The notes under the pieces were generated by a model that saw only the letters and a program-made list of their open reading frames with translations, made no database searches and was not told the origin of the DNA. A stretch of 64,000 bases of DNA from a virus, in the IMG/VR virus record IMGVR_UViG_3300022752_000018, positions 1 through 64,000 of that record. The stretch is one strand, 5' to 3'. Positions 1-52,857 of the stretch are shown here, one piece after another; position 1 is the stretch's first letter; every line of letters starts with the position of its first letter. A program made the translations under genes and the position numbers.

Positions 1-2
1 AA

Positions 3-4505: not shown

Positions 4506-4507
4506 GA

Positions 4508-5032: not shown

Positions 5033-5047
5033 TATTTAGCATAAGTT

Positions 5048-5659: not shown

Positions 5660-5670
5660 TTAAATACCCC

Positions 5671-24345: not shown

Positions 24346-24776
24346 AAGATAAGATTGTATGTAGTGGTGCTCTATTTTATTCTAAAAATACAAAACGAGT
24401 TTTCCTACTTCAAAAAGCAAATGGTAAGCATCGTGGAACTTGGAGTTTGGTGGGCGGTACTGTTGAATCTAACGAAAATGCCTGGCAAAGTCTAACTAGA
24501 GAAATTAATGAAGAAATAGGTACGATGCCAGATATAATTAAATCAATACCTCTTGAAACATTTGTAAGTAATGATACCATATTTAATTTCCATACTTATT
24601 TGTGCGTAGTTCATAATGAATTCACTCCCATTTTGAGTAATGAACATTCAGGATATAGTTGGACAAATATTGATCAATGTCCAAAACCTTTACATCAAGG
24701 TCTACGTAGTAGTCTAAGTAATAAAAATATCCGAGGTAAGATTCAAGTCATTATGAATTTAATGGATATGATTTAG
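24327..24776 (+). CDS. NUDIX hydrolase
   Basis: Nudix box GGTVESNENAWQSLTREINEEIG. Confidence 0.88.
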   Translation: MEINTVKDKIVCSGALFYSKNTKRVFLLQKANGKHRGTWSLVGGTVESNENAWQSLTREINEEIGTMPDIIKSIPLETFVSNDTIFNFHTYLCVVHNEFTPILSNEHSGYSWTNIDQCPKPLHQGLRSSLSNKNIRGKIQVIMNLMDMI

Positions 24777-25552: not shown

Positions 25553-25558
25553 AATTTT

Positions 25559-26812: not shown

Positions 26813-27551
26813 AGTGGTCTATATCCAAAATATTTTTATGTACAATATCAACATTACCTAAAAAATAGTAATTGTTTGATAAAATTAAATGTAAAATTCT
26901 TTCTCCAAAAAAATCATAAAATCTAACCTGTTGGTTTCTTTTATAAATTTCTGGAATTATTGAAGAATAATTACTATGAAATTCAAATAAAACTTGAAAT
27001 AATATTTCACAAATTCTATTAAAAAGTGTTTGTTCTGCTGTGAACATATGAAACGGAATCAAATACTTATACGTTCTAAGTTGATCTATCATATTTACAG
27101 TGATAGGTATACGGCGATCCCCTGCCAATCCATAAAGTAATTGCCAACCTAATTGATTATGACAATGAGTAAAATGGTCATAAACATTATCAACATGAGG
27201 AGCGAACCCTTTTATAGCAGTTACAATATCTTTGGCTTCAGGCACATATACCCTATTAGGTTTAAGATCAAATTTTTCTTCATCCCAAAATATACGGTAT
27301 GTGTTAGTACCTTTGTATTCATGATCTGTGTTTTTCCAAACCCAATATAAACCTGTTAAACTACCAAAATCATTATTCATATGACTTATATGATCTTTGG
27401 TATGATCTATTAAAAATCCACGTTCTTGCATGGCAACTACATCCATATGATTATAATTAATAGATCCACACATCAAATTGATTTGATCAAATTGACGTCT
27501 TTTTGGTTCGCGGCCTACATAACATAGGCAATACATAGCTAGTTGCTGCAT
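26805..27551 (-). CDS. DUF4422-like putative glycosyltransferase
   Basis: DHISHMN..FGSLTGLYWVWKN......YR and ERILH motifs resemble DUF4422 (ELTxxYWxWKN...YRR, ERL). Confidence 0.65.
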   Translation of the reverse strand: MQQLAMYCLCYVGREPKRRQFDQINLMCGSINYNHMDVVAMQERGFLIDHTKDHISHMNNDFGSLTGLYWVWKNTDHEYKGTNTYRIFWDEEKFDLKPNRVYVPEAKDIVTAIKGFAPHVDNVYDHFTHCHNQLGWQLLYGLAGDRRIPITVNMIDQLRTYKYLIPFHMFTAEQTLFNRICEILFQVLFEFHSNYSSIIPEIYKRNQQVRFYDFFGERILHLILSNNYYFLGNVDIVHKNILDIDHYA

Positions 27552-27603: not shown

Positions 27604-30126
27604 CTAAGCTAGTCGAACTATTGACAATCTTGAAGCTGTTGTAGTTCCGTTGAATACCAAACCTTGGTTTACAAATAATATTAAAGTATCATTTGTATTA
27701 AAACTTATAACTTCTGACACACTACCTCTTCTCAAAGCATTGGTCAATACTTGACAATATTTCGTTGTATTTTGGTTATTTTTCTTAACCCAAAAATCTA
27801 CAATTGGGTAAGTTTGCCCTGCTGGGACATTTGGTAGTACGCTTACACTGAAATTAATAATTATCTGATAAGTCCCTGTAGTACCAAATGTAAAAATTCC
27901 CCCTGAACTCATAGTGCCAAATCCGTTAACACTTCCAACAATTAAACTAGGAGTTTCTGACCAACTTATATCACCAGATGGATTGACGGTTTGATCACTG
28001 GCTTTAATATATGTCATTATTTCACTATTAGAAGGATTAGTCCAAGCAACTCCAGAGCCAGTGCTGCTCAATAATTGACCTTGTATACCAGTTGATCCAT
28101 TTGCTGTGACTGATCCAGTTAATATTGAACTATTCAATACAGGAGCGTTCAATGTTTTATTTAATAATGTTTGTGTAGCCTTAAGACTTACAACTTGGCT
28201 AGATGCTGTTAATCCAGTTTGTCCATAAACAAAAATATCATTAGCATGTATATCAAGTTCTACTCCCATGCCACCCGCAACTTGTAAAGCTCCTGTGGTT
28301 AAACTGGTTGACAATGTAGTGGCTGGAATTTTAACTGAACCTGATGTAGCAATTAAAGTTATTGAAGATGCTTCTTTGACGTTTTCAATAGTAAAATTAT
28401 CACTGGTTGTAGTGATTATGGGATTATCTTGCTGGGTGATAATATCAATATAATCTTTATCACCTGCTGTATAATTAGGACCTACTCTTAATTTTGCCTG
28501 ATTATTTTGAAGAACTAGACTGTAACCTGTTAGTTTAGTTTCCGTTGGATTACCACCGACAAGTGTAGTATCCAAGGTATTTAACCACATTGGCCCAGTG
28601 GCATTTATAGCCTTACCTATACCTAGTCCGCCACTTACTACTAAAGCTCCCGTAGTTATACTATTGCTTTCAGTAGTATCAACTACTTCAGATAATTGAG
28701 TAGCACTTAAAGTAGTAAACTTTCCAGATGATCTAAATGTGTTACCAATTGGGCTACTCTCAATAAAACCAGCAGTCAAAGTTCCTACGATATCAACATC
28801 GCCCCCAATATTGGTATTTTCACTTATACCTACTCCACCGGTAATAACCAATGTTCCAGTGGCTGTAGTAGTACTAGAAATATTAGCTGGCATTGATACT
28901 TTTCCATCACCACTAATCACTAGATAATTAGATACTACATTTGTGCCAATAGAAGCATATGCTAGTACAACTTTATTATCAACATCTATTAAAGATTCAG
29001 AAATTTTATTTAATTGCCATGCCCCACGATTATTATCATCTTTTAACCAACTAGTTCCATCATAGTATAAGTTAGTAGTCCAACTATATTGGTTAGACAA
29101 ACTTGTATTAATTCTACTTTTGAAAGCCGAAGATACACCGCTTGAAATTTCTATGTTGGCATTATTTGCTGTTAAATTTATATTAGGATCGCTAATATTA
29201 GGAGCTGTTAAAGTTTTATTGGTTAAGGTTTGAGTTGTATCATTACCTACTAGTGTAGTAGATGCGTCTGGCAGATAAATGGTTCTATCATTCGTAGGAT
29301 CAATAGCCACGAGAGTAGTTTCAAAATTATCATTTGAAGAGCCTTCAAAGACAATACTAGAATCACTAAGATACAATCCGCTGATAATAGGATTAACTAT
29401 AGTCTTATTTGTTACTGTTTGAGTTCCAGTTAATAGTACATATGGAGATAAATCCTGTGTCAAAGCTTCAGGACCAGCAGGTGTAAATGTAATGCTTACA
29501 GGATCATTATTACCAAAATTCTCTTCACTTACATTAAATCTAACATTAGTTATATCAATTTTGAAATAACCTACAGGATAAAAAGTTACCGTGCTAAAAG
29601 AAAATATTTGAAAGAAATTAGGATTATTTTCTTTTTCTACTTTAATGTACCCTCTTCTTGTACTATTGCCATAGGTAGTAAGACTATCAATAAATCCTGA
29701 TATATTATTTCCTGCTTTATCAGAACCACTTATTAAAATATATGGAGATTGATTCATACCATTTCCATAATCTCTTACAAAAAGAATTTTACCTATACCA
29801 GGATTTCCATTATCTACATTATTACTATCTATCACATAATGAAACTTAGTAGCATCTATGCTACTAGGTGGAATCCAACTTATTGTGCCATTTCCATCTG
29901 TACGTAATATGTAATTTGCTGCTCCACCTAAGGGAAATACACTTATGCCTGCAGAACCTGTATCTAACCAAAGTAATTTCTGATTGACATTACCGAAAAA
30001 ATCTGTAGGGAATTTATTACTTATATGGATACTCTTTGAGATAACTGGACTGCCATTAAGGATAAGACCATCCTCATCGGTGCTTAATAAATGCGCTGGG
30101 CCCGTCTGATCTAAATTAATTGGCAT
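27604..30126 (-). CDS. tail fibre / appendage protein with a C-terminal beta-sandwich (C1q/BclA-like) head (840 aa)
   Basis: Thr/Ser/Gly-rich fibre repeats (GALVVSGGLGI, QTLTNKTL, IVFEG...DNFETTL..IDPT.DRTI.LPDA) and a terminal GIFTF.TTGTYQI...DTLILFV segment. Confidence 0.7.
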   Translation of the reverse strand: MPINLDQTGPAHLLSTDEDGLILNGSPVISKSIHISNKFPTDFFGNVNQKLLWLDTGSAGISVFPLGGAANYILRTDGNGTISWIPPSSIDATKFHYVIDSNNVDNGNPGIGKILFVRDYGNGMNQSPYILISGSDKAGNNISGFIDSLTTYGNSTRRGYIKVEKENNPNFFQIFSFSTVTFYPVGYFKIDITNVRFNVSEENFGNNDPVSITFTPAGPEALTQDLSPYVLLTGTQTVTNKTIVNPIISGLYLSDSSIVFEGSSNDNFETTLVAIDPTNDRTIYLPDASTTLVGNDTTQTLTNKTLTAPNISDPNINLTANNANIEISSGVSSAFKSRINTSLSNQYSWTTNLYYDGTSWLKDDNNRGAWQLNKISESLIDVDNKVVLAYASIGTNVVSNYLVISGDGKVSMPANISSTTTATGTLVITGGVGISENTNIGGDVDIVGTLTAGFIESSPIGNTFRSSGKFTTLSATQLSEVVDTTESNSITTGALVVSGGLGIGKAINATGPMWLNTLDTTLVGGNPTETKLTGYSLVLQNNQAKLRVGPNYTAGDKDYIDIITQQDNPIITTTSDNFTIENVKEASSITLIATSGSVKIPATTLSTSLTTGALQVAGGMGVELDIHANDIFVYGQTGLTASSQVVSLKATQTLLNKTLNAPVLNSSILTGSVTANGSTGIQGQLLSSTGSGVAWTNPSNSEIMTYIKASDQTVNPSGDISWSETPSLIVGSVNGFGTMSSGGIFTFGTTGTYQIIINFSVSVLPNVPAGQTYPIVDFWVKKNNQNTTKYCQVLTNALRRGSVSEVISFNTNDTLILFVNQGLVFNGTTTASRLSIVRLA

Positions 30127-30140: not shown

Positions 30141-33100
30141 TTATGATAATGCTGCTACTCTAACTTGGAAGTCTGCGAAATCTGCGCTGGCTGCTACCAC
30201 GCTCTTAAATGTGGCCAGTGACAGTGTTCCAATAGTTCCGTCTGTACCTTGTGCTCCAGTTGAACCTTGTGCTCCAGTTGAACCTTGAGTACCATCTGTA
30301 CCTTGTGTACCATCTGTTCCTTTTGTACCTGTAGCACCTTGTGGTCCTGGTAATCCCTGTAAACCTGTATTACCCGTAGTACCTGTTGAACCTTGTGTAC
30401 CAGTATCACCTTGTAAACCTTTTTCCCCTTGTAAGCCTTGACGACCCTGTATTCCCTGTGCTCCAGTAAATCCTTGGAATCCTTGTATTCCCTGTGCTCC
30501 AGTAAATCCTTGGAATCCTTGGAATCCTTGGAATCCTTGGAATCCTTGGACGCCTTGGATACCCTGTGCTCCAGTAAATCCTTGGAATCCTTGTATTCCC
30601 TGTGCTCCAGTAAATCCTTGGAATCCTTGGAATCCTTGTAATCCTTGGATACCCTGTACACCCTGACCACCTTGAACACCCTGTACACCTTGTACGCCCT
30701 GTATACCCTGTACACCTTGTACACCTTGACCACCTTGTACACCCTGTACACCTTGTACACCCTGTCTGCCTTGTACACCTTGTACACCTTGTACACCTTG
30801 ACCACCTTGTACACCTTGTACACCCTGTCCGCCTTGTACACCTTGTACACCTTGTACACCCTGTCCGCCTTGGACACCTTGTACACCCTGTCCGCCTTGT
30901 ACACCTTGTACACCTTGTACACCCTGTCCGCCTTGGACACCCTGTACACCCTGTACACCTTGACCACCCTGTACACCCTGTACGCCTTGTACACCCTGTA
31001 CACCCTGTACACCTTGTACACCTTGTACACCTTGTACACCTTGAATACCTTGAATACCCTGACTACTAATTTGATTCCAATTAGCATTTGGTGGGGGAGT
31101 TGCTACATTACTTGTATGAGCTGTTATACAAATATAACTTGTTCCTTGATAGAACACCATATCATTTACAGCATAAGGTGTACTACCAGTCCATACACCT
31201 TTCCAAACTACACCAAGTCCTTGTACACCTTGTACACCTTGTACACCTTGTACACCTTGTACACCTTGGCCACCTTGTACACCTTGTACTCCCTGTACAC
31301 CCTGACCACCTTGTACACCTTGTACACCTTGTACACCTTGTACACCTTGGCCACCTTGTACACCTTGTACTCCCTGTACACCTTGGCCACCTTGTACACC
31401 TTGTACACCTTGAACTCCTTGACCACCTTGTACACCTTGTACACCTTGTACACCCTGACCACCTTGTACACCTTGTACACCTTGTACACCCTGACCACCT
31501 TGTACACCTTGTACACCTTGTACACCTTGTCTACCCTGTACACCCTGTACACCCTGTACACCCTGACCACCTTGTACACCTTGTACGCCCTGTATACCCT
31601 GACTGGTTAATTGATCCCAATATGTTGAATTAACTATTGGTGGCTGACCAGTAGCTGGTGTTTGCCCGGCAACTGGCGTACCATTTTTATAGATGTAACT
31701 GTTACCATCATAAAATACTAAATCGTTTTGATAGTAAGTTGTACCAGCAGCATAGATACCTTTCCATACTAAACTAAAGCCCTGTACACCTTGTACACCT
31801 TGTACACCTTGTACACCTTGGCCACCTTGTACACCTTGAACGCCTTGTACACCCTGACCACCTTGTACACCTTGTACACCTTGTACACCCTGACCACCTT
31901 GTACACCTTGTACACCTTGTACACCTTGTCTACCCTGTACACCCTGTACACCTTGTACACCTTGACCGCCCTGTACACCTTGAACACCTTGAACACCTTG
32001 TACACCCTGACCACCTTGTACACCTTGTACACCTTGTACACCCTGACCACCTTGTACACCTTGTACGCCCTGTATACCTTGACTGGTCATCTGGTTCCAA
32101 TATGTTGAATTAACTATTGGTGGCTGACCAGTAGCTGGTGTTTGCCCAGCAACTGGCGTACCATTTTTATAAATGTAACTGTTACCATCATAAAATACTA
32201 AATCGTTTTGATAGTAGGTTGTGCTAGCAGAATATGTGCCTTTCCATACCAAACTAAATCCTTGTACACCCTGTACGCCCTGTACACCCTGTACACCTTG
32301 GCCACCTTGTACACCTTGTACACCTTGAACTCCTTGACCACCTTGTACACCTTGTACACCTTGTACACCCTGACCACCTTGTACACCTTGTACACCTTGT
32401 ACACCCTGACCACCTTGTACACCTTGTACACCTTGTACACCCTGACCACCTTGTACACCTTGTACACCTTGTACACCTTGTCTACCCTGTACACCCTGTA
32501 CACCCTGTACACCCTGACCACCTTGTACACCTTGTACGCCCTGTATACCTTGGCTGGTCATTTGCTCCCAATATGTTGAATTAACTATTGGTGGCTGACC
32601 AGTAGCTGGTGTTTGCCCAGCAACTGGCGTACCATTTTTATAGATGTAACTATTACCATCATAAAATACTAAATCGTTTTGACTATAAGTTGTACTGGCA
32701 GAATATATACCTTTCCATACTAAACTAAAGCCCTGTACACCTTGTACACCTTGTACACCTTGTACACCTTGTACACCTTGTACACCTTGAACACCTTGAC
32801 CACCTTGTACACCCTGTACACCTTGTACGCCTTGTCTACCCTGTACACCCTGTACACCTTGTACACCTTGACCGCCCTGTACACCTTGTACACCTTGTAC
32901 ACCCTGACCGCCCTGTACACCCTGTACACCCTGTACACCCTGTATACCTTGAACACTCAATAGGTTCCAATTGGCATTTAAAGGTGGACTTCCTATGGAA
33001 CTAGTATGTGTTACTATACAAATATAGCTTGATCCTTGATAATATACCATATCATTTAATTGATATGGTGTTCCACCAGCCCAAGTTCCTTTCCAAACTA

Positions 33101-36100
33101 CTCCAAGACCTTGTACACCTTGTACACCTTGTACACCCTGTACTCCCTGTACACCTTGAACACCCTGTACACCTTGCCTACCTTGTATACCTTGCCAACC
33201 TTGAACTCCTTGAATACCTTGAATACCCTGGGCACCTGTCAATTCCCATCTTTGGAGTGTCGCATCAAGATTAGAACTAGTATGGAATTGTGGTGTATAG
33301 CTACCAACAGAGAAAGTTAACCCAGTTGGAGTACCAGTAGAGTTGGAAATTGATCCACCACCCTTGGTCAAACTCAATGTAGCCGTTGTTGATGTACTAG
33401 CAGTTACATAATACACTGTACCAAGAGTAGCATTTAGAGTACTGTAATTTTGTAAAGACCCTCCTCCTGTATTAGTTCCCTGAACAATTACTGGTAATCC
33501 AACTGATGGAGCAGTAGTTGAATTAAAACTAATACCATTCGAGGTAATTTGAACACCTGTTAAATTATTTGGAATATATTCTGATAAACTTACATATGTG
33601 CTACCAGAGAATATGATCATATCACTAACAGCATAGTTATTAAGTGGTGACCATTCACCTCTCCACTTAAATCCTGATCCTTGTATACCCTGCTGACCTT
33701 GTACGCCCTGTACTCCCTGTACACCCTGTACACCCTGACCACCTTGTACGCCCTGTACACCCTGTATACCTTGGCTGGTCATTTGCTCCCAGTAGGTGGT
33801 ATTAACTATTAAACTTGCACCTACACCAGTTGATGGAGCTTGTCCTGCTGTCGGTGTAACATTTTTAAAGACATAACTATTACCGTTGTAGAATACAATG
33901 TCATTTGTATAATAAGTTGTACCCGCTAACCAAGTACCTTTCCATACCAAACTGAATCCTTGTACACCTTGTACACCCTGTACACCTTGAACGCCTTGAC
34001 CACCCTGTACACCTTGGACACCTTGAACTCCTTGACCACCTTGTACACCTTGTACACCTTGTACGCCCTGTATACCTTGTACGCCCTGTACACCTTGTCT
34101 ACCTTGTACACCTTGTACACCTTGTACACCTTGACCACCTTGTACACCTTGTACACCTTGTACACCCTGTCCGCCTTGTACACCCTGTACTCCCTGTACA
34201 CCCTGTACTCCCTGTACACCTTGAACACCCTGTATACCTTGACTGGTCATTTGATTCCAGTACGCAGTATTAACGACTAAACTTTGACCTATACCAGTTG
34301 ATGGTGCGTTACCAGCACTTGGTATAGCATTATTATAGATGTAACTATTACCATTATAGAATACAATATCATTTTGAGTATAAGTTGTACCTGCTAACCA
34401 AGTACCTTTCCATACCAAACTGAATCCCTGTACACCTTGTACACCTTGTACACCCTGTACACCTTGACCACCTTGTACACCTTGTACACCTTGTACACCT
34501 TGTCCACCTTGTACACCTTGTACACCTTGTACACCTTGTCCACCTTGTACACCCTGTACACCTTGTACACCCTGACCGCCCTGTACACCCTGTACTCCCT
34601 GTACACCCTGTACTCCCTGTACACCTTGAACACCCTGTATACCTTGACTGGTCATTTGATTCCAGTACGTAGTATTAACGACTAAACTTTGACCTATACC
34701 AGTTGATGGTACGTTACCGGCACTTGGTGTAGCATTAGTATAGATGTAACTATTACCATTATAGAATACAATATCATTTTGAGTATAAGTTGTACCTGCT
34801 AACCAAGTACCTTTCCATACCAAACTGAATCCCTGTACACCTTGTACACCTTGTACACCTTGAACGCCTTGACCACCCTGTACACCTTGTACACCTTGAA
34901 CTCCTTGACCACCTTGTACACCTTGTACACCTTGGACGCCTTGTACACCTTGTACACCTTGAACACCCTGTACACCTTGTACACCCTGACCACCTTGTAC
35001 ACCCTGTACACCTTGAACACCCTGTACACCTTGTACACCTTGAACGCCCTGTATACCTTGACTGGTCATCTGGTTCCAGTACGTAGTATTAACGACTAAA
35101 CTTTGACCTATACCAGTTGATGGTGCGTTACCAGCACTTGGTGTAGCATTAGTATAGATGTAACTATTACCATTATAGAATACAATATCATTTTGAAAAT
35201 AAGTTGTACCTACTAACCAAGTACCTTTCCATACCAAACTGAATCCCTGTACACCTTGTACACCTTGTACACCTTGAACGCCTTGACCACCCTGTACACC
35301 TTGTACACCTTGTACACCTTGACCACCTTGTACACCTTGTACACCTTGTACGCCCTGTATACCTTGTACGCCCTGTACACCTTGTCTACCTTGTACACCT
35401 TGTATACCTTGTACACCTTGACCACCTTGTACACCTTGTACACCTTGTACACCCTGTCCGCCTTGTACACCTTGTACACCTTGTACACCCTGTCCGCCTT
35501 GTACACCTTGTACACCTTGTACACCCTGTCCGCCTTGTACACCTTGTACACCTTGTACACCCTGTCCGCCTTGTACACCTTGTACGCCCTGTACACCTTG
35601 TCTACCCTGAATACCTTGTACGCCTTGTACGCCTTGACCACCTTGTATGCCTTGTATACCTTGTTGTCCAGCTGGCTGAAAGGCTACATTTAATACTGAA
35701 CCATCAGCAGGAGCAGTTCCTTGTGTGTCAATAAATGTACAATTTAGGGTAAAGAATGAATTAGGACTATTATAAGTTATACTATTAATAGTAGCAGCAT
35801 ATCTAGTTACAGATCCATCTGGTTGTAATGTTAGAACACCATGATATGATCCAGCAGTTCCAAATGCTGTCATAGCATTAAAGAATGAATATCTGTCTTG
35901 TCCTAAAATATCATATCTATCTACATATACAACTATTCCACCAGCAGTAGTACTAGTCCAATCTCGATTAATTCGTATAGTACCATTTGCAGGATTGCTT
36001 GTAGTAGTATTATCCCAAGCATAAGTGGCAGTGTATCCACCAGGAGTACCTACAATTCCTTGGACACCTTGAATACCTTGGACACCTTGTCCACCCTGTA

Positions 36101-39100
36101 CACCTTGAACTCCTTGGACACCTTGTACACCTTGTATACCCTGTACACCTTGTACACCCTGTCCGCCTTGTACACCTTGTACGCCTTGTACACCTTGACC
36201 ACCTTGTATGCCTTGTACGCCCTGTACACCTTGACCACCTTGTATGCCTTGTACGCCCTGTACACCTTGACCACCTTGTATTCCCTGTATTCCCTGTATA
36301 CCTTGTACACCTTGTACACCTTGTAAGCCTTGGCTAGCAATTAATGACCATGGATTAGTTTTAAATATTAAACCAGTTAATGATCCAGTCCCTATTCCAC
36401 CAATACCTGTTACACTAAACTGTGTTCTTCCTAAAATAAATGAGGTTGTAGGCCCATTATCAGCACTGATAATGTAATATACTACATTAGGTACCGTTTG
36501 GCCTGCTGTAAAATATGTCGGACTTGACTCAGGACTACCAGGATTTTCTAAACTAATACCAGCTGGCACTGTTCCTGATACAATAACTGCCTCGCCTATG
36601 TATAAATTAGTACTTGTACATCCAAATACTCCTGAAGTATTGGTCTTGGTTACATCAGGAATAGTAATAGTTGTACCTGGAGGATTGTTTATATTAAAGT
36701 AAGCCCCTGATCCGTATGTTGAATCACCAAATGTACTTGTGTAGCTTGATCCTTGATAGAATATAGTTTCATTTCTTAAGTAACTTGCTCCAGGTTGCCA
36801 ATCTCCTAAGAATGTAAATCCTTCACCCTTAGTACCCTGGAAGCCTTGTACACCTTGTTGACCTTGAACACCTTGAACACCTTGTACACCTTGACCACCT
36901 TGTACACCCTGTATGCCCTGTATACCCTGTACACCCTGTTGACCTTGTACACCCTGTACACCTTGTACACCTTGTACACCTTGTCCACCTTGTACACCCT
37001 GTACACCCTGTACACCTTGTCCACCTTGAACACCTTGAACACCTTGTACACCTTGTCCACCCTGTATGCCCTGTATACCCTGTACACCCTGTTGACCTTG
37101 TACACCCTGTACACCCTGTACACCCTGTCCACCTTGGACACCCTGTACACCCTGTACACCCTGACCACCCTGTACACCCTGTACACCCTGTAGACCCTGT
37201 ACACCCTGTACACCCTGTACACCCTGTAGACCCTGTAGACCCTGAATACCCTGAATACCCTGACCACCTTGTACGCCCTGTACGCCTTGTATACCTTGGC
37301 TTACTAAAAGATTCCAACTTGCGCCTACTACAGGAACAACTCCTGTGCTATTAGCTATTGCTATCCAAGAACTGCCATTATAAAATACTATATCATTAGT
37401 GCTATATGGTGTGGTACTATTCCAAGTTCCTTTCCAAACTAAGCTAAAACCCTGTACACCTTGAATACCCTGTACACCCTGTACACCTTGTCCACCCTGT
37501 ACTCCCTGTACTCCCTGTACACCTTGGCCACCTTGTACACCTTGAACGCCTTGAACGCCTTGAACGCCTTGAACGCCCTGTACACCTTGTACACCTTGGC
37601 CACCTTGTACACCTTGTACACCCTGTACACCTTGAACGCCCTGTAAACCTTGTACACCCTGTAAACCTTGGCTTACAATCATATTCCAATCTGCGGTTGT
37701 CCCGGGAACAATTCCAGTATGTACAGTAGTTGATATCCAAGAACTACCGTTATAAAATACTACATCATTAACAATGTAAGGCGTTGATAAATTATATGTA
37801 CCTCTCCAAATTAATCCAACACCTTGTATACCTTGACCACCTTGTACACCTTGTACACCTTGTACACCTTGACCACCTTGTACACCTTGTACACCTTGTA
37901 CACCTTGACCACCCTGTATACCCTGTATACCCTGTAGACCCTGACCACCTTGTACACCCTGTACTCCCTGTACACCCTGACCACCTTGGACGCCTTGTAC
38001 ACCTTGTAGACCTTGTACACCTTGTACACCTTGTCCGCCTTGTACACCTTGTACACCTTGTACACCTTGTCCACCTTGTACACCTTGTACACCTTGTACA
38101 CCCTGTCCGCCTTGAATACCTTGAACGCCTTGTATACCCTGACCGCCTTGGATACCTTGAACGCCTTGGACACCCTGTACACCTTGTACACCCTGTACAC
38201 CCTGTACACCTTGAACACCTTGAACGCCCTGTACACCTTGGACACCCTGTACACCTTGTACACCTTGTACACCTTGTACACCTTGAACGCCTTGGACACC
38301 CTGTACACCTTGTACACCTTGTACACCTTGTACACCTTGAATACCTTGGGATGCAAGCACATCCCAACTAGATGGATTTGTATCAGGCTGATTATTATAA
38401 TTGCCATTAACTTTACTAATATATGATGAACCTAGATAAGCTACAGAATCATTATTATTATAAATTACGCTAGGATCCCATATTCCTTTCCAAGTTACAC
38501 CACCACCTTGAATACCCTGTTGGCCTTGTACGCCTTGTACACCTTGAACGCCCTGTACACCTTGTACACCCTGTACACCCTGTACACCCTGTACGCCTTG
38601 TACACCTTGTACGCCCTGTACACCTTGTACACCCTGTACGCCCTGTACACCCTGTACACCCTGTACACCTTGTACTCCTTGTACGCCCTGTACACCCTGT
38701 ACGCCCTGTACACCCTGTACACCCTGTACACCTTGGACGCCTTGGACTCCTTGTACACCTTGGACACCCTGTACACCTTGAACACCCTGTACACCTTGTA
38801 AACCTTGGCTTGCTATTCTTTCCCAGAAAGTATCATTATTTTCAGGTCCAGGAACTGCTGTAGAATTAGAATTACCAGTTGGAACTCCTCCTCCTGTATA
38901 TCTTACTATCCACGCACTACCATTATAAAATACAACTTCATTTTGATAATAAGTTGTATTAAAATCGTACATTCCACGCCAGATTATACCAAAACCTTGT
39001 ATACCCTGTACACCTTGTACGCCCTGTACGCCTTGTACGCCTTGTACACCTTGTACGCCTTGTACACCTTGTACACCTTGAACGCCTTGAACGCCTTGTA

Positions 39101-42100
39101 CACCTTGTACACCTTGAACGCCTTGAACGCCTTGTACACCCTGTACGCCCTGTACACCCTGTACACCTTGTACACCTTGGACTCCTTGGACGCCTTGTAC
39201 ACCTTGTACCCCTTGTACACCTTGGACACCTTGGGCTCCTTGTAGACCTTGAACGCCTTGTAAACCTTGGACTCCTTGTAGACCTTGAACGCCTTGTAAA
39301 CCTTGGACTCCTTGTACACCTTGTACACCCTGTACGCCTTGTACACCCTGTACGCCTTGTACACCTTGTACGCCCTGTACACCCTGTACACCCTGTACAC
39401 CTTGTACACCCTGTACGCCTTGTACACCCTGTACGCCTTGTACGCCCTGTACACCCTGTACACCCTGTACACCCTGTACACCCTGTACACCCTGTACACC
39501 TTGAACACCTTGAACACCCTGTACACCCTGTACGCCTTGTACGCCTTGTACACCCTGTACGCCTTGTACACCCTGTACGCCCTGTACGCCTTGTACACCT
39601 TGGGCTCCTTGTACACCTTGTACACCTTGAACACCCTGTACACCCTGTACACCTTGAACGCCTTGAACGCCTTGAGCTGCTAAAATTTGCCAATAAGTCG
39701 AATTAATTACAGGTGGATTACCATAACTTGGTTCTTCATCACTAAATTGACCATATGGTGGATCAGTAGTAATAGGATATATTACAATATAGCTATTTCC
39801 ATTGTAATATACTACATCATTTTGTTGATAAGTTGCTGATGAACTGTATGTTCCTCTCCATCTTATACCAAATCCTTGAATACCTTGAACACCTTGAACA
39901 CCTTGGACTCCTTGAACGCCTTGTACACCTTGGACTCCTTGTACACCTTGGACTCCTTGTACACCTTGGACACCCTGTACACCCTGTACACCTTGGACTC
40001 CCTGTACACCTTGGACTCCTTGGACTCCTTGTACACCCTGTACACCTTGTACACCTTGTACACCTTGAACGCCTTGTAGGCCCTGTACACCTTGAACGCC
40101 TTGTAGGCCTTGATAGCCTTGGACACCTTGACTTGACAACATGTCCCAATAGGCTGATCCTTCATATGGTTCATTATTAGTATTACTGCCTGCTAATGAA
40201 GCCCAAGAAGATCCATTCCATTTAACCGCATCATTTTGATTATAGGTTACATTTGACTGCCATTCTCCTCGCCAAACAAATCCCAATCCTTGGATACCTT
40301 GTTGACCTTGAACTCCCTGTACACCCTGTACACCCTGTACACCCTGTACACCCTGTACACCCTGGACGCCCTGTACACCCTGGACGCCCTGTACACCTTG
40401 GACACCTTGTACACCTTGTACGCCTTGTACACCTTGTACACCCTGAAGACCTTGAACACCTTGTACACCTTGAACGCCTTGTACACCTTGTACACCTTGT
40501 ACACCTTGTACACCTTGTACACCTTGTACACCTTGTATACCTTGCCAACCTTGGACACCCTGTACACCCTGTACACCCTGTACACCCTGTACACCTTGAA
40601 CGCCTTGGACACCTTGGACACCCTGTACACCCTGTACACCTTGGACTCCCTGTACACCTTGGACACCTTGGACACCTTGGACACCTTGGACACCCTGTAC
40701 ACCCTGTACACCTTGGACTCCTTGGACTCCTTGGACACCTTGGACACCCTGTACACCCTGTACACCTTGGACTCCTTGGACTCCTTGGACTCCTTGTACA
40801 CCCTGTACACCCTGTACACCCTGTACACCCTGTACACCCTGTACACCCTGTACACCCTGTACACCCTGTACACCCTGTACACCCTGTACACCCTGTACAC
40901 CTTGTACGCCTTGTACACCTTGGACACCCTGTACACCTTGTACACCCTGTACACCTTGGACTCCCTGTACGCCTTGTACACCCTGTACGCCTTGTACACC
41001 TTGAACGCCTTGTACACCTTGAACGCCTTGTACACCTTGAACGCCTTGTACACCCTGACTAGCTAATAATTCCCAATATGTGTCATTATACTCTGGTCCT
41101 GGAACTGTCAATGGATTCTGTGCACCTGGAGTAACACCTTCAACACCAGTGTATTTTACTATCCAACTTGATCCACTGTAGAAAACAACTTCATTTTGAT
41201 AATATCTGGTATTGAAATCATACATTCCACGCCAAATAAGACCGAATCCCTGAATACCCTGTACACCCTGTACACCCTGTACACCCTGTACACCTTGTAC
41301 GCCTTGGACACCCTGTACACCCTGTACACCCTGTACACCTTGGACACCTTGGACTCCTTGGACTCCTTGGACTCCTTGTACACCCTGTACACCCTGTACA
41401 CCCTGTACACCCTGTACACCCTGTACACCCTGTACACCCTGTACACCTTGTACGCCTTGTACACCTTGGACACCCTGTACACCTTGAACGCCTTGGACAC
41501 CTTGAACGCCTTGAACACCCTGTACACCTTGTACACCTTGTACACCTTGTATACCTTGCCAACCTTGGACACCCTGTACACCCTGTACACCTTGTACACC
41601 CTGTACACCCTGTACACCCTGTACACCCTGTACACCCTGTACACCTTGTACACCTTGTACACCTTGGACTCCTTGGACTCCTTGTACTCCTTGTACACCT
41701 TGTATACCTTGCCAACCTTGTACACCCTGTACACCTTGTAGGCCTTGTACACCTTGTACACCTTGTACACCTTGTACACCCTGTACACCTTGTACACCCT
41801 GTACACCTTGTACACCCTGTACACCTTGTACACCCTGTACACCTTGTACACCCTGTACACCTTGTACACCTTGTACACCTTGTACACCTTGTACTCCTTG
41901 TAGTCCCTGTACACCTTGTACTCCCTGTACACCCTGTACACCTTGTACACCTTGTACACCTTGTACACCTTGTACCCCTTGTACACCTTGAATACCTTGT
42001 GCAGCTATTAGATTCCAATATGATTCATTGACAACTATTGGATAACCAGCTTCTGCTTTGCTTAAAACTGGTATTGTTTGTAAGCCACCAAACTTATTAT

Positions 42101-45100
42101 TGGTATCACCTGTAATAGCAATAAACGAACTACCATCAAAATGAACTATATCATCAGTAGCGTAAAGTTCACTAGAGCTCCAATCACCTCTCCATACTGG
42201 ACCACGACCTTGAATACCTTGTACACCCTGTACGCCTTGGACACCTTGAACGCCTTGAACGCCTTGGACACCCTGTACTCCTTGTACACCTTGGACTCCT
42301 TGGATTCCTTGGACTCCTTGTAGACCTTGAACGCCTTGGACGCCCTGTACACCTTGAACACCCTGTACACCCTGTACACCTTGAACACCCTGTACACCCT
42401 GTACACCTTGTACACCCTGTACACCCTGTACACCCTGTACACCTTGTACACCCTGTACACCTTGTACGCCCTGTACACCCTGTACACCTTGAACGCCCTG
42501 TACGCCCTGTACACCTTGTACACCTTGTACACCTTGGACGCCCTGTACACCCTGTACACCTTGAACGCCTTGGACGCCCTGTACACCTTGAACACCTTGA
42601 ACACCTTGAACACCTTGAACGCCCTGTACACCCTGTACACCTTGAACGCCTTGAACGCCTTGAACGCCTTGTACTCCTTGGACTCCTTGGACCCCTTGTA
42701 CACCCTGTACACCTTGGACTCCTTGTACACCTTGGACTCCTTGTACTCCTTGTACACCTTGTACACCTTGTACACCTTGTACACCTTGTACACCTTGTAC
42801 ACCTTGTACACCTTGGACACCTTGTACACCCTGTACGCCCTGTACGCCCTGTACGCCCTGTACGCCCTGTACACCTTGTACGCCCTGTACGCCCTGTACA
42901 CCTTGTACGCCCTGTACACCTTGGACTCCTTGGACTCCTTGTACACCCTGTACACCTTGTACACCCTGTACACCCTGTACACCCTGTACACCCTGTACAC
43001 CCTGTACACCCTGTACACCCTGTACACCTTGAACGCCTTGTACACCTTGAACGCCTTGTACACCTTGAACGCCTTGTACACCTTGTACACCCTGTACACC
43101 CTGGACGCCCTGTACACCTTGTACGCCTTGTACACCTTGTACACCCTGTACACCCTGTACACCTTGAGTACCTTGACTGGCTAATCTTTCCCAAAATGTA
43201 TCATTATCTTGTGGACCTGGAATAGTTAATGGATTTTCGGCACCTGGAGTGACACCTTCTACTCCTTTATATTTTACTATCCAACTTGATCCATTGTAGA
43301 AAACAACTTGATTCTGATAATATCTAGTATTGAAATCATACATTCCCATCCAGATAATACCAAATCCCTGTATACCTTGTACACCTTGTACACCTTGTAC
43401 ACCTTGAACACCTTGTACGCCTTGTACACCTTGTACACCTTGTAGGCCTTGTACACCTTGTACACCTTGTACGCCTTGTACGCCTTGTACACCTTGTACA
43501 CCTTGGACACCTTGTACACCTTGTAGGCCTTGTACACCTTGTACGCCTTGTACGCCTTGTACGCCTTGTACGCCTTGTACACCTTGTACACCTTGTACAC
43601 CTTGTACACCTTGTACGCCTTGTACACCTTGAACGCCTTGTACACCTTGTACACCTTGGACGCCTTGAACACCTTGTATACCTTGCCAACCTTGTACACC
43701 TTGAACGCCTTGTACACCTTGTACACCCTGTACACCCTGTACACCTTGAACACCTTGAACGCCTTGTACACCTTGTACACCCTGTACACCTTGGACTCCT
43801 TGTAGACCTTGAACGCCTTGTAAGCCCTGTACACCTTGTACGCCTTGTAGGCCTTGTACACCTTGTACGCCTTGTACACCTTGTAGGCCTTGTAGGCCTT
43901 GTACACCTTGGACACCTTGGACACCTTGGACGCCTTGTACACCTTGAACGCCTTGTACACCTTGAACGCCTTGTACACCTTGTACACCCTGTACTCCTTG
44001 AACGCCTTGTACACCTTGGACACCTTGGACACCTTGTACACCCTGTACACCTTGTACACCCTGTACACCTTGTACACCTTGTACACCTTGTACACCTTGT
44101 ACACCTTGTACACCCTGTACACCCTGTACGCCTTGTACACCTTGTACACCTTGTACACCCTGTACACCTTGAACGCCTTGTACACCTTGAACACCCTGTA
44201 CACCTTGTACGCCTTGTACACCCTGTACACCCTGTACACCCTGTACACCTTGTACACCTTGTACACCTTGTACACCTTGTACGCCTTGGACACCCTGTAC
44301 ACCTTGTACGCCCTGTACACCTTGGACTCCTTGTACACCTTGGACTCCTTGGACTCCTTGGACTCCTTGTACACCTTGTACACCCTGTACACCCTGTACA
44401 CCCTGTACACCCTGTACTCCTTGAACACCCTGTACGCCCTGTACACCTTGTACGCCTTGTACACCCTGAAGACCTTGAATACCTTGAGCAGTCATTCTAT
44501 TCCAGTAAGTATCATTTACTTGACCTGGAGTGAATTCTGGAACTTGGTTTACAAATTGAGTGCCTTGAACATTATACATGTCAAGAGGATAAACTGCTAT
44601 AAAACTATCACCATCATAATAAACTACATCATTTTGTTGATATATAGTTCCTGGAGAATACTCGCCTCTCCAATTAATACTAAAACCTTGTATACCCTGT
44701 ACACCCTGTACACCCTGTACACCTTGTACACCTTGTACACCTTGTACACCTTGTACGCCCTGTACACCCTGTACACCTTGTACTCCTTGTACTCCTTGTA
44801 CTCCTTGTACGCCCTGTACACCCTGTACGCCCTGTACGCCCTGTACACCTTGGACTCCTTGTAGGCCTTGTACACCTTGGACACCCTGTACGCCTTGGAC
44901 GCCTTGGACACCCTGTACGCCTTGTAAGCCCTGTACACCCTGTACACCTTGTACACCCTGTACACCTTGTACACCCTGTACACCTTGAACGCCTTGGACA
45001 CCTTGGACACCTTGTACACCTTGTACGCCTTGAACACCCTGGACGCCCTGTACACCCTGGACGCCCTGTACACCTTGGACACCTTGTACACCTTGTACGC

Positions 45101-48100
45101 CTTGTACACCTTGTACACCCTGAAGACCTTGAACACCTTGTACACCTTGAACGCCTTGTACACCTTGTACACCTTGTACACCTTGTACACCTTGTACACC
45201 TTGTACACCTTGTATACCTTGCCAACCTTGGACACCCTGTACGCCTTGTACACCTTGGACTCCTTGTACGCCCTGTACACCTTGGACTCCTTGTACGCCC
45301 TGTACTCCTTGTACGCCCTGTACACCTTGGACTCCTTGGACTCCTTGTACTCCTTGGACTCCTTGGATACCTTGCCAACCTTGTACACCTTGTACACCTT
45401 GTACACCTTGTACACCTTGTACACCCTGAGCTCCTTGTACACCCTGTACACCTTGTACACCCTGTACACCTTGTACACCTTGTACACCTTGAACGCCTTG
45501 AACACCTTGGACGCCCTGTACACCTTGGACGCCCTGTACACCTTGAACGCCTTGGACACCTTGGACGCCTTGGACACCTTGAACGCCTTGGACACCTTGT
45601 ACGCCTTGTACGCCTTGTACACCTTGGACGCCCTGTACACCCTGTACACCTTGAACGCCTTGTACACCTTGTACACCTTGTACGCCTTGGACACCCTGTA
45701 CACCTTGTACACCCTGTACACCCTGTACACCTTGTACACCTTGTACACCTTGGACACCCTGTACGCCTTGGACACCCTGTACGCCTTGGACACCTTGGAC
45801 ACCTTGGACACCTTGGACACCTTGTACACCTTGTAAACCTTGGATACCTTGACTAGCAATCATAGACCAAACATTTAAATTCAAATCTGGTCTGATACCT
45901 TTATTATTTTCTATAGCAGTATAGGCACTGCCATTATAAAATACAGCATTATTAATAATATAATCAGTTTCTGGATTCCATAACCCTCTCCAAATAAATC
46001 CAACACCCTGAATACCTTGAATACCTTGTACACCCTGTACACCCTGTACACCCTGTACACCCTGTACACCCTGTACACCTTGAACGCCCTGTACACCTTG
46101 GACTCCCTGTACACCTTGTACGCCCTGTACACCCTGTACACCCTGTACACCCTGTACACCCTGTACACCCTGTACACCTTGTACACCTTGTACACCTTGT
46201 ACGCCCTGTACACCTTGTACACCCTGTACACCCTGTACACCCTGTACACCTTGTACACCTTGTACACCTTGTACACCTTGTACGCCCTGTACGCCCTGTA
46301 CACCTTGTACACCTTGTACACCTTGTACACCTTGTACGCCTTGTACACCTTGTACGCCCTGTACACCCTGTACACCCTGTACGCCCTGTACACCCTGTAC
46401 ACCCTGTACGCCCTGTACACCCTGTACACCTTGTACACCCTGTACACCCTGTACACCTTGGACACCTTGTACGCCCTGTACACCTTGGACACCTTGTACG
46501 CCCTGTACACCTTGTACACCCTGTACACCTTGTACTCCTTGTACACCTTGTACACCTTGTAAGCCCTGTACACCCTGTACACCCTGTACACCCTGTACAC
46601 CCTGTACTCCTTGGATACCTTGCCAACCTTGTACACCTTGTACACCTTGTACACCCTGTACACCTTGTACACCTTGTACACCTTGTACACCCTGTACACC
46701 CTGTACACCCTGTACACCCTGTACACCTTGAACGCCTTGAACACCCTGTACACCCTGTACACCCTGAGTACCTTGACTGGCTAATCTCTCCCAAAATGTA
46801 TCATTATCTTGAGGTCCAGGAACTGTCAATGGATTTTCAGCACCAGGAGTAACTCCCTCTACTCCTTTATATTTTACTATCCAACTTGATCCATTATAAA
46901 AAACAACTTCATTTTGATAATATCTAGTATTAAAATCATACATTCCCATCCAGATAATACCAAATCCCTGTATACCCTGAACTCCCTGTACACCTTGGAC
47001 ACCTTGAACGCCTTGAACGCCTTGAACGCCTTGTACACCCTGTACACCCTGTACACCCTGTACACCTTGTACACCCTGTACACCTTGTACGCCCTGTACG
47101 CCCTGTACACCTTGTACACCTTGAACGCCCTGTACACCTTGGACGCCTTGTACACCTTGTACACCCTGTACACCTTGTACCCCTTGTACACCCTGTACGC
47201 CCTGTACGCCCTGTACACCCTGTACACCTTGTACCCCTTGTACACCTTGTACACCTTGTACACCTTGTACGCCCTGTACACCCTGTACACCCTGTACACC
47301 CTGTACTCCTTGTACACCCTGTACACCCTGTACGCCCTGTACACCCTGTACTCCTTGAACACCCTGTACGCCCTGTACACCTTGTACGCCCTGTACGCCT
47401 TGTACGCCTTGTACGCCTTGTACACCTTGTACACCTTGTACACCCTGTACGCCCTGTACGCCCTGTACACCCTGTACACCCTGTACACCTTGTACACCTT
47501 GTACACCTTGTACACCTTGTACACCTTGTACACCTTGTACACCCTGTAAACCTTGAATACCTTGAGTAGCAACTACATCCCAATATACTCTGTAACCAAT
47601 TCTTGGAACTGTATTAGGATCTATTATACCTGGAGTTATACCTGCTGGATCTTTATATACTGCAATATAACTAGAACCATTATAAAAAATTGCTTCATTT
47701 TGATAATATCTTGTGGTAAAACTATAACTCTCTTTCCAAATAATACCAAAACCCTGAATACCCTGTACGCCTTGTACGCCCTGTACACCCTGTACACCTT
47801 GTACACCCTGTACACCTTGAACACCTTGAACGCCCTGTACACCTTGGACCCCTTGTACACCTTGTACACCTTGGACTCCCTGTACGCCTTGGACTCCCTG
47901 TACTCCTTGGACACCTTGTACGCCTTGTACGCCTTGTACACCCTGTACACCCTGTACACCTTGAACGCCTTGTGCTGTACTTTGTTCCCAATAAGCACTT
48001 CCAAAATACGGACGATTACCACGGTTTATTGGAACTGGACCAACGATACTTACCCAACTTGATCCATTATAGTAGACCATGTCGCCTTTGGAATATTCAT

Positions 48101-48884
48101 CAAATTCGTTCCAATATCCTTTCCAAATAATACCACGACCTTGGATACCTTGAGCACCCTGTACACCTTGAAATCCTAAATCACCTTGGATACCTTGACG
48201 ACCCTGTACACCTTGAGGTCCTACTGGTCCAAATCTACCTTGAAAACCTTGAATACCTTGTGGACCTTGAGTGGCCATCAAGTCCCAGTATAAACTTCCA
48301 TCTGCGGGGGGTGGACCACCTTGATTTGGTTTTATAGCGACCCAAATAGATCCATTATAGTAGACTACGTCATTTTCACCATAAGGTTCTGTAAGGCTAT
48401 AGTCACCTTTCCAAATGAAACCTATACCTTGTATACCTTGATTACCTTGGGGTCCTTGACGACCTTGTACACCCTGAGGTCCTATTGGACCTATTGGGCC
48501 AAATGTACCCTGTATACCCTGTGGCCCTTGTAGACCACCGCCACTGATTACACTTATTCTACCAGTTCTAGGGTTACCGTCACCCCAATAAACATTTAAA
48601 TTCCCAGGATCAATAACCTTAATATATGGGCTTCCTGGTTTACCTAAGTCTACACTTTCATTATTATCATCATAAATCTGTACGGTTACATATTGTACAT
48701 TAAGATTATGTTGTACTGACCAAACTTCAGCTGCTACAGTTTGGTGATATACAAAATTTCCACCTACAAAACTAGCTCCTTGAGCACCCTGCACACCTTG
48801 GCTTCCAGGAGCGCCAATCATTATGGCACGCCAGCCATCTTGGACTCCTTGTACACCTTGGAAATATCGTTTTAAGACGCTCAT
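30141..48884 (-). CDS. giant collagen-like fibre protein (6,247 aa): (Gly-Val-Gln)n tracts interrupted by about 26 CBM5/12-like modules
   Basis: One uninterrupted 18.7-kb frame in Gly-X-Y register. Modules follow W(K/R)GxW/Y...Y..ND.V.Y.GSS(Y/W)...P....W. It has an N-terminal W-x-V-x-HNL domain and a short C-terminal helix ([21 protein letters not shown]). Confidence 0.9.
30400..48000. repeat. 9-bp tandem repeat arrays (CARGGTGTA and variants)
   Basis: Long runs of ACACCTTGT and ACACCCTGT on the plus strand, between the non-repetitive modules. Confidence 0.95.
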
Positions 48885-49145: not shown

Positions 49146-50570
49146 CTAAGCCTGGAAGATATCCACTATATTTATCGCAGCGAACCATTTAATGATTTTA
49201 TCGGAGTCACCTATATTAATTTTGTCTGGGCCTTTAACTAATATCCTAATTACTCCATTAGGTGTGCCAGTAGGTGTACCATCAGTAGTACCAACTTCTG
49301 CTTTTACAGACCAACTATAATTTAAAATAGTAGCTGCGTCTAAATATTGTTCTGCTATACCAGTACCACTGCCTGGTCCTGTGGCGGTAAACACAGTGCC
49401 CACCTCAAAATCCATATTTGGATTAGATGCTATAGATTCCCAAACTGTGTCACCTTTTTGTTTGATTCTATATATCCCCCCAACAGTAAATGATCCTGCA
49501 TTGGTTGTTAAAATAGTAATAGATGTGGTTGATGAACCTGAAACTTTTTCAGTTAATGTATTTCCAATTATTGATGTAGTCGATGCATTTGCTCCTCTGG
49601 TTGCTAAAAATTCTAGATTCCAACTTGCGCTTTCATTTCCGCCTATTAATTTTGAATTTATTTCTACCTTTACTTTATAAGAATGATTATTTTCTAATTC
49701 AAACCGATTAGTATCTATTAAGGTATCTGAACCGTCTAAAGTCAGTTCCTTCCAAGTTCCGTTGGTAGTAGTTGCGCTGACTAATAATGTAGTTTTACCA
49801 AATCCAGTATTAAATTCTGATAATCCATCATCACTTAAATGTTGTGTAAACCTACTACTTTGTACTCGTGCGTAACCATCTAATTGTGGTTTTAAGATTA
49901 CATCACCGGTTATAGGATCGCCTTCCTGGTCTTTATTAATAGCTCTTATGGTGTTATTAAGAAGTTGTAAATTACCAAACTTACCATCAGCTTGATCACT
50001 AAGACCAACAAACCCTATATATCTATAACCTCTAACATATATTTTATCACCTGCACTTAGATCATCAGGTATAACATTTGAGTTATCGCCATTGTCTAAA
50101 TAATTGGTAAAATTAAGTACCCCTGACATATAGTCAAAATAGTAAGCACCTTTGTCATTAATACCAGCATCAAATATCTTTTTTGTACCCGCGCTGGCAG
50201 GATTACCTATAAAAACTTCAATTAAATATCCAGGTCCAAATTCAGGACTAATCCAATTTTCGTACTTTACTTCACTCCCTGATATTGTTGCTTTAGCTAC
50301 GTAAGTAGGATATATATTATTTATAGGAGTAGTTGTGGTATCGGGCACTAATTCCATCGTTCTATATTCAACTACACTCTGTACTATATTTGGTGAAGCC
50401 GGGGCCTTTATAATACTATTTGCTTGAGTCCAAATTTTGTCGCCGCGCAATAGGCTAGGACTAGGAATAGTTTCGTTACTAGCACCTTTTAAAGTATTGA
50501 AATCAGTTTTAGATAGACCAAATAATTTCTTGTACAGTAAATCTACTTTTTGTTTATCAACTACGGCCAT
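49146..50570 (-). CDS. virion structural / appendage-associated protein (474 aa)
   Basis: Sits in the fibre operon; beta-rich, and carries an AGSFTVGGIY...GTVFTATG.G.GTG module shared with the 54-64 kb giant protein. Confidence 0.7.
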   Translation of the reverse strand: MAVVDKQKVDLLYKKLFGLSKTDFNTLKGASNETIPSPSLLRGDKIWTQANSIIKAPASPNIVQSVVEYRTMELVPDTTTTPINNIYPTYVAKATISGSEVKYENWISPEFGPGYLIEVFIGNPASAGTKKIFDAGINDKGAYYFDYMSGVLNFTNYLDNGDNSNVIPDDLSAGDKIYVRGYRYIGFVGLSDQADGKFGNLQLLNNTIRAINKDQEGDPITGDVILKPQLDGYARVQSSRFTQHLSDDGLSEFNTGFGKTTLLVSATTTNGTWKELTLDGSDTLIDTNRFELENNHSYKVKVEINSKLIGGNESASWNLEFLATRGANASTTSIIGNTLTEKVSGSSTTSITILTTNAGSFTVGGIYRIKQKGDTVWESIASNPNMDFEVGTVFTATGPGSGTGIAEQYLDAATILNYSWSVKAEVGTTDGTPTGTPNGVIRILVKGPDKINIGDSDKIIKWFAAINIVDIFQA

Positions 50571-52711: not shown

Positions 52712-52745
52712 TTAAGATCTAGCCCCCTTTCCTGTCGCTACATAT

Positions 52746-52774
52746 AAAAACGGGCCTTGTACAGACCCGTTTTT
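52746..52774 (-). terminator. rho-independent terminator (possibly bidirectional)
   Basis: Minus strand ACGGGTCT-GTACA-AGGCCCGT followed by TTTT, with an A-run on the other side. Confidence 0.7.
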
Positions 52775-52857
52775 GCTCAAGATAATAGATAATAATTCAT
52801 TGCGGATCATTCTAACTCTTTGTTCAAAAAGTCTTTACAGACTATTTATAATTTTGG

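Follow-up and report, generated by a model that had tools for sequence, protein, structure and literature searches.

A 64,000-nucleotide stretch of viral DNA (hereafter the window; positions 1 to 64,000 of IMG/VR record IMGVR_UViG_3300022752_000018) carries on its minus strand an 18.7-kb gene whose product alternates long Gly-X-Y tracts, most of them runs of Gly-Val-Gln (GVQ), with 26 small domains, here called beads. The record is 183 kb long, is rated 52% complete and, judged by its tail sheath, is a fragment of a jumbo myophage genome; the window makes up its first 64 kb. With moderate confidence we read the gene as a late structural gene of this uncultured phage, coding for a homotrimeric, beaded, collagen-like virion fiber that is most likely attached to the tail or baseplate. 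A virion fiber is the best reading because the gene lies in a baseplate and tail-fiber neighborhood and its product matches tail-fiber families in PHROG. The architecture and the role as a fiber are well grounded, and a triple helix, a micrometer reach and glycan capture are plausible; we infer the trimer, the triple helix, the direction of folding, the location on the virion and the ligand from sequence. The gene had been singled out in an earlier prediction made from the DNA letters alone (the original prediction), and its main elements are taken up below with the results that bear on them.

Gly-X-Y tracts and selection on the coding sequence

The predicted coding region is borne out as a single minus-strand open reading frame (ORF) of 6,247 codons at 30141-48884, open over its entire length and starting at the first possible ATG; the orthologue in locus L004 has the identical opening MSVLKRY. 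Counting as a tract any run of at least five consecutive triplets, and taking lengths as they stand in the metagenome assembly, there are 29 tracts with a total of 4,314 residues or 1,438 triplets, in good agreement with the roughly 4,000 residues of mostly GVQ register that had been foreseen. Exact GVQ triplets number 1,130; valine occupies the X position in 1,129 triplets (79%) and glutamine the Y position in 1,381 (96%), and the longest tract runs for 130 triplets (390 aa) without interruption. Only 12 of the 4,314 tract residues are proline, 11 of these in the terminal tracts, and 25 are charged. The description of the protein as proline-free thus applies to the repeat tracts but not to the protein as a whole, which has 1.8% proline, mainly from the beads.

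Four tracts match the Pfam Collagen family (PF01391) with 225.1, 150.6, 66.1 and 137.4 bits, relative to a gathering cut-off of 27.2, and the match of 225 bits is to the pure GVQ tract of 390 aa. The tracts do not have the imino acids or charge pairs seen in characterized bacterial collagens, which are a trait of the known examples and not a formal requirement of PF01391. The rods are of two designs, with long pure rods in the N-terminal 55% of the protein and shorter, GGQ-spaced rods in the C-terminal 40%; from residue 3592 onward GGQ comes back at intervals of four triplets (in 41 of 61 spacings). The short-rod region has expanded by tandem duplication of bead-plus-rod units with periods of 405-471 bp. 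At 0.286 nm per residue the summed contour of the rods would be 1,234 nm if extended, in keeping with the original estimate of about 1 micrometer, and the computed end-to-end root-mean-square (r.m.s.) distance is ~280 nm if each node is a free hinge.

The nucleotide sequence of the repeats varies in a pattern set by the code. Over 1,312 repeat units the first two positions of the glycine codon show no change and the CA of the glutamine codon varies in 2%, while the three third codon positions vary in 27%, 27% and 36%, a contrast well outside what chance would give. Because the variable sites track codon positions, selection acts on a Gly-x-Gln protein and the array is neither a satellite nor an assembler loop; a non-coding 9-bp satellite is ruled out on the same ground. 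The ratio of nonsynonymous to synonymous substitution rates (dN/dS) in the non-repeat parts, compared with orthologues, is 0.20-0.31. The gene is real and under selection, and is not repeat debris.

The array is also more complex than its translation suggests. GVQ is encoded by 17 synonymous 9-mers, and neighboring units are identical in just 26% of cases, with at most 11 identical units in a row (99 bp). Exact repeats within the gene reach 209 bp at most and every 251-mer is unique; 330 of 18,618 127-mers and 186 151-mers are non-unique. With exact repeats of at most 209 bp and identical runs of at most 99 bp, reads of at least 150 bp can span every ambiguity.

Beads, terminal caps and inserted domains

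Searched with a hidden Markov model (HMM) of the regular beads, the protein shows 26 copies, the number originally estimated. Of these, 24 are regular beads of 49-68 aa that align to one consensus (G-F-G-x-x-W-K-G-x-W...Y-x-x-N-D-x-V-F-Y-N-G-S-S-Y...P...W...S-Q-G), and the remaining two carry inserts of ~100 aa; W6, Y16, G26, P40 and W47 are invariant and Y24 almost so. At E <= 0.01, 16 of the 24 regular beads match the carbohydrate-binding module (CBM) family CBM_5_12 (PF02839; best E 1.4e-9), with several single beads scoring under the family cut-off of 26.2 bits. Among solved domains, the bead profile matches the CBM12 of a Vibrio chitin oligosaccharide deacetylase (4nz1, E 3e-5) and the chitin-binding domain (ChBD) of ChiA1 (1ed7), the CBM12 and ChBD matches ranging from E 3e-5 to 5e-4; it also matches the Anabaena injection-system protein All3316 (7b5h) and a phage short tail fiber (8ke9). 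Alignment by hhalign of the beads with the Pfam-passing CBM_5_12 insert in the phage's own tail sheath gives 91.6%. By these comparisons the beads are CBM5/12-like modules, as had been proposed.

The inventory of the original prediction holds for the 26 beads but omits one unrelated domain of 121 aa (Table 1). Its AlphaFold2 (AF2) model, made with ten sequences, has a predicted local distance difference test (pLDDT) value of 88 and matches a domain of over 40 predicted viral proteins of the collagen triple helix repeat type, with template modeling (TM) scores of 0.73-0.84; these structural relatives include proteins of Synechococcus phages S-H34 and S-CAM7 and of giant eukaryotic viruses (Klosneuvirus, Indivirus and Marseillevirus LCMAC). 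There are 51 sequence relatives, many within giant repeat proteins, and the domain is 64-76% identical in L083-L085. In the PDB, Foldseek finds no match at E <= 0.001 and the best VIA-align hit has a Z of 6.5, in the noise range; an Atlas feature search returns unnamed viral clusters only. Judged by the model, the domain seems to accompany viral collagen rods as a rule, and it may be an undescribed collagen-associated viral domain.

The two bead inserts are Gly/Thr/Ser-rich, and by eye both resemble a segment of P0002, the product of a neighboring giant ORF, a likeness that is unsupported by BLAST. A single-sequence AF2 model of residues 4020-4188 has a pLDDT of 34 and is unusable.

Distinct caps at the two ends had been predicted and are found, at residues 1-116 and in a 26-aa tail, both conserved in the orthologues. 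The N-terminal cap is probably the end that attaches to the virion; it matches phrog_21918 (residues 43-82) and phrog_16122, a virion structural protein family (residues 31-77), and a match to phrog_6320 (tail fiber) extends over residues 9-155, where collagen triplets may supply part of the score. The N-terminal domain has no sequence match in the PDB. At the other end, the last tract is the only one with conserved proline and charged triplets, and together with the conserved tail it is taken as the putative nucleation and trimerization end. Matches to phrog_5073 (tail fiber) are found for the N-terminal part (E 1.4e-31), the C-terminal part (E 1.8e-31) and single beads (down to 4e-13).

Table 1. 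Features of the beaded collagen-like gene and of its neighbors in the window.
Feature	Residues	Coordinates	Strand	Description
Beaded collagen-like fiber gene, complete	1-6247	30141..48884	-	6,247 aa, ~622 kDa, pI 4.8
N-terminal cap	1-116	48537..48884	-	Conserved 23-aa leader, 5-triplet tract and 78-aa globular domain
Mixed-triplet tracts and beads 1-2	117-305	47970..48536	-	Two short tracts (GPQ/GIQ/GPI/GFQ); Pfam Collagen E 2.5e-10
Long-rod region	306-3462	38499..47969	-	Eleven near-pure (GVQ)n rods, each 25-130 triplets or 21-112 nm long, with beads 3-12 between
Example bead	963-1012	45849..45998	-	CBM5/12-like, bead consensus
Short-rod region	3463-5942	31059..38498	-	Rods of 11-59 triplets, beads 13-26
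Insert-bead 1	4023-4185	36330..36818	-	163 aa; bead with ~100-aa insert; 160-aa unit at the same position in L083 and L085
121-aa domain	4285-4405	35670..36032	-	Predicted beta-barrel plus helix, unrelated to beads
Insert-bead 2	5072-5216	33237..33671	-	145 aa; bead with ~100-aa insert; 146-153-aa units there in orthologues
C-terminal mixed-triplet tract	5943-6221	30222..31058	-	PF01391 E 2.9e-21; candidate triple-helix nucleation zone
C-terminal tail	6222-6247	30144..30221	-	26 aa, SLA-FK--VA-S--FADF---VAAL; candidate trimerization/docking helix
840-aa protein, downstream		27604..30126	-	Tail-fiber and baseplate-wedge-initiator matches; syntenic in 4 of 4 3'-side orthologous loci
DUF4422 glycosyltransferase, tetratricopeptide repeat (TPR) protein and family 2 glycosyltransferase (GT2) block		24773..27551	-	After the fiber and 840-aa genes
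Three upstream genes		49146..53868	-	474, 713 and 336 aa; syntenic with L004

Orthologues and genome context

A search for homologues, proposed with the original prediction, finds five syntenic orthologous contigs in five different metagenomes (L004, L083, L084, L085 and L086). Module order and neighboring genes are kept among them, and tract lengths and bead numbers differ. L004 represents the 5' side, with the first 949 residues and the upstream 336-, 713- and 474-aa genes at 67-74% identity; the first 305 residues of the protein are 66% identical. The first three tracts of L004 have 5, 13 and 15 triplets, the same lengths as here, and the next have 52, 47 and at least 77 GVQ triplets compared with 25, 67 and 86. 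The 3' portion is carried by L083 (at least 2,967 residues), L084 (at least 1,959) and L085 (at least 3,538), all in the order 121-aa domain, 60-aa beads, 146-153-aa unit, more beads, long last tract and ~25-aa tail; L083 and L085 extend further, to the 160-aa insert-bead that precedes the 121-aa domain. L086 is a GTQ/GQQ variant with the same C-terminal tail, which is kept also in L083, L084 and L085. From these comparisons the gene family is real, with the full-length sequence so far only here. Since all five relatives end within the gene, short-read metagenome assemblies seem to cut such genes short in a systematic way, and the class is probably commoner and wider in size range than current records suggest.

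The window also contains terminase, tube, sheath, sheath stabilizer and head-tail adaptor genes, on the same strand as the fiber gene. By its tail sheath the phage is a distant relative of Sinorhizobium phage Phosso, Agrobacterium phage Atu_ph07 and Pseudomonas phage PA5oct (35-47% identity); the cultured-phage collection gives no match to the structural region by megablast or to residues 1-310 by tblastn. The sheath gene (16154-19690, minus strand) is unusually large, coding for 1,178 aa, and has a Pfam-passing CBM_5_12 insert at residues 445-479, of the module type seen in the fiber beads, so the tail surface itself may be adhesive. The fiber gene is flanked by the genes for the 336-aa and 840-aa proteins. 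Upstream of it, the 336-aa product matches structural-protein and tail-fiber PHROGs, and the 474- and 713-aa products match only PHROGs of unknown function.

Downstream, the DUF4422 and TPR genes follow the 840-aa gene in L083-L085 as well, as does the GT2 gene where the contig reaches that far, and the block comes after the fiber and 840-aa genes in every locus among L083-L086 long enough to include it. This block is 79-94% identical across the orthologous loci, far above the fiber parts (54-76%), and its genes are possible virion-glycosylation genes; a TibC/Aah-type glycosyltransferase (TIGR04414) is absent from the 183-kb record. The record is further populated by giant ORFs. One of 6,653 aa lies upstream of the fiber gene (54312-64000, minus strand, continuing to 74273 in the genome) and has helical repeats with a recurring C-x-R-D motif, and others code for 4,423, 3,739, 2,202 and 1,565 aa. 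After the 4,423-aa ORF comes another collagen-like gene, far smaller than the fiber gene and with GVQ/GIQ tracts (G000:C1, ~126546-128009, plus strand).

The proposed fiber, its alternatives and known systems

A parallel homotrimeric triple helix is the most economical structure for the tracts, given that relatives have canonical collagen triplets at homologous positions and that glycine is never substituted. In the assembly pathway we propose, three identical chains would join at the C-terminal end, by way of the 26-aa conserved helix and the triplets with proline and charge, and the triple helix would zip toward the N-terminus. The 26 beads and the 121-aa barrel would fold as globular nodes, spaced every 11-130 triplets, that clamp the register of the degenerate (GVQ)n rods and also act as hinges. 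The outcome would be a freely jointed chain with a contour of ~1.2 micrometers and an r.m.s. reach of ~0.28 micrometers, docked onto the particle by its N-terminal domain. The 26 aromatic beads on each of three chains give 78 CBM-like beads per trimer and, with the same module on the sheath, suggest weak, multivalent binding of host surface polysaccharide, which would enlarge the capture radius. A three-copy complex prediction for a rod-bead-rod segment reached a score of 0.31, against a mark of 0.42, and is counted neither way.

A bolder version of this proposal, which we offer only tentatively, is that (GVQ)n represents a new collagen sequence class, a triple helix without imino acids or charges that would be held by ladders of glutamine side chains and hydration together with a valine ridge. 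The fiber would then act as a ~1.2-micrometer 'fishing line' with 26 nodes, several times as long as the particle or as type I collagen, and would catch host surface polysaccharide by multivalent binding.

Several observations weigh against the reading as a tail-attached triple-helical fiber. The triple helix is deduced from sequence, and GVQ has neither the imino acids nor the charge pairs that are documented stabilizers of bacterial collagens; valine and glutamine also favor beta structure. No attachment homologue, solved or annotated, is found for the N-terminal domain, which thus points to neither tail nor head, and a CBM5/12-like sequence is no proof of glycan binding, so the beads might be purely structural. 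The exact tract lengths rest on a metagenome assembly, all five orthologous contigs end within the gene, and a search among proteins of at least 3,435 aa finds no other complete copy, only unrelated collagen proteins and a 4,341-aa protein composed almost solely of such beads. Two other candidates are rejected. A tape-measure role does not fit a non-helical protein whose gene lies apart from the sheath and tube genes of the window, and an intramolecular polyglycine II (PGII) bundle does not fit tracts that run for as many as 390 residues with no turn motif.

The same observations frame the alternatives. Beads that serve only as register clamps, hinges or trimer nodes and bind no ligand, with host recognition residing elsewhere (for example in the 840-aa neighbor or the insert domains), are a reasonable minority view: the invariant bead residues are those expected of a fold core, conservation is higher at the bead boundaries (GIQG-F-G... 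and ...SQG) than in the loops, and a degenerate (GVQ)n trimer needs registration points. Set against it, the fold family is carbohydrate-binding, the same module decorates the tail sheath, and the length and sequence of the loops differ from one subfamily to another, a variability typical of binding surfaces. We think it unlikely that the tracts are something other than a triple helix, be it a disordered or elastomeric spacer, a PGII or polyproline II (PPII) type bundle or Gln/Val beta structure, with the beads as the sole folded parts. The near absence of imino acids and charges and the beta propensity of valine and glutamine speak for such a structure, but strict glycine at every third residue is a hallmark of the triple helix that a disordered spacer would not need, and it is kept here in all 1,312 units, with no register-breaking indel in tracts of up to 130 triplets. 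Nor are there turn motifs for an antiparallel PGII bundle; relatives have canonical GPQ/GPT collagen at the homologous positions, and PF01391 is passed by a wide margin.

The location on the virion is a separate matter. A capsid 'hair' or neck fiber, wrapping or extending from the head, is about equally unlikely in our view, but it fits an N-terminal domain with no recognizable homology to baseplate adaptors and the presence of head and packaging genes in the same large late cluster, and it has a precedent in the hair-like head appendages of the jumbo Tenacibaculum phages PTm1 and PTm2, reported in work cited in PMC10013915. The immediate neighbors match tail-fiber and baseplate-wedge PHROGs, however, and the family's cultured-phage members carry tail-fiber annotations, both of which point to the tail. 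Least probable of all is that length and module order are partly an artifact of assembly, through mis-joined or over-extended repeats or a strain chimera. The non-unique 127-mers and 151-mers and the break of every orthologous contig in the gene would allow for this, yet exact repeats are short, identical 9-mers run for no more than 11 units, the frame stays open for 18.7 kb, and independent assemblies, with partial ORFs that reach at least 3,538 aa, show the modules in the same order over the C-terminal 55% and the first 950 aa. The tail- or baseplate-attached fiber remains the reading that we prefer.

Collagen stability is usually ascribed to imino acids, hydroxylation or charge pairs. If the triple helix is true, the protein would push past two accepted limits, in collagen composition and in phage fiber length. 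Gly-Val-Gln rods of 4,300 residues would be a natural test case for stabilization by glutamine and hydration, and a simple, recombinantly accessible building block for collagen materials. A reach of 0.3-1.2 micrometers from a particle a few hundred nm long would alter estimates of adsorption cross-section for large aquatic phages, and the globular nodes that regularly break the degenerate rods suggest a general answer to register-keeping in long homopolymeric trimers. Should the protein be merely an ordinary tail fiber grown very long, it would still provide a useful marker family, and it shows the loss of such genes from short-read assemblies (5 of 5 relatives truncated).

The design is extreme, but it is less singular than the original prediction implies, and stands at one end of a widespread family of phage collagen-like tail fibers that includes small collagen-bead-collagen proteins and other collagen proteins of 2,500-4,000 aa. 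The N-terminal region is common to many IMG/VR relatives, with 210 confirmed stretches. The small relatives (loci L006-L013) are of 754-807 aa with three beads and GPQ/GAT/GPA triplets, and their homologues in cultured phages are annotated as tail fiber, minor tail or collagen repeat proteins. They share the bead HMM, the alternation of tracts and beads and N-terminal homology with the gene described here, but their tracts are of ordinary triplets and at most 31 triplets long, whereas this gene is ~8x longer and has homogenized GVQ rods. Giant beadless collagens are also present in IMG/VR, namely L020 (4,034 aa, GNQ/GFQ/GPQ), L025 (2,602 aa) and L064 (2,575 aa, with a 1,563-residue tract); these are likewise giant, G-X-Q-rich or proline-poor collagen-type fibers with the shared N-terminal region, but have no beads by HMM and a different triplet composition.

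Collagen-like tail proteins of phages have been known since 1998 (Smith et al. 1998, as cited in PMC1079782), and a literature search for giant, GVQ or proline-free phage collagens returned general phage-collagen papers only. Collagen-like side-tail proteins of E. coli O157 prophages (EPclA/EPclB), made recombinantly, form trimers that contain a true collagen triple helix; for EPclA both the trimer and a trimerization element at the C-terminus have been shown (PMC3368898). These and other phage collagen-like tail fibers (PHROG 5073/6320/1806) resemble the present protein in having Gly-X-Y tracts beside globular fiber domains and in being encoded by tail-module genes; they differ in their length of a few hundred to ~1,000 aa and their proline and charged triplets, compared with 6,247 aa and 26 internal beads here. 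Bacillus BclA, Streptococcus Scl1/2 and the Pasteuria fibers are, similarly, prokaryotic, hydroxyproline-free collagen-like fibers of particle surfaces, and the stability of bacterial collagen-like fibers has been credited partly to hydration networks of threonine and glutamine (reviewed in PMC8968730). Those fibers are cellular, however, with ~100 triplets, Pro/Thr/charged residues and one terminal globular domain as opposed to 26 internal ones. The beads match CBM5/12 domains by profile (PF02839, 1ed7, 4nz1), and here they are placed between the collagen rods of a putative virion protein. By these sequence comparisons the kind of protein is already known, and what is new is its size, its near-homopolymeric GVQ composition and its 26 internal beads, which make it the extreme case among the phage collagen-like tail fibers compared here.

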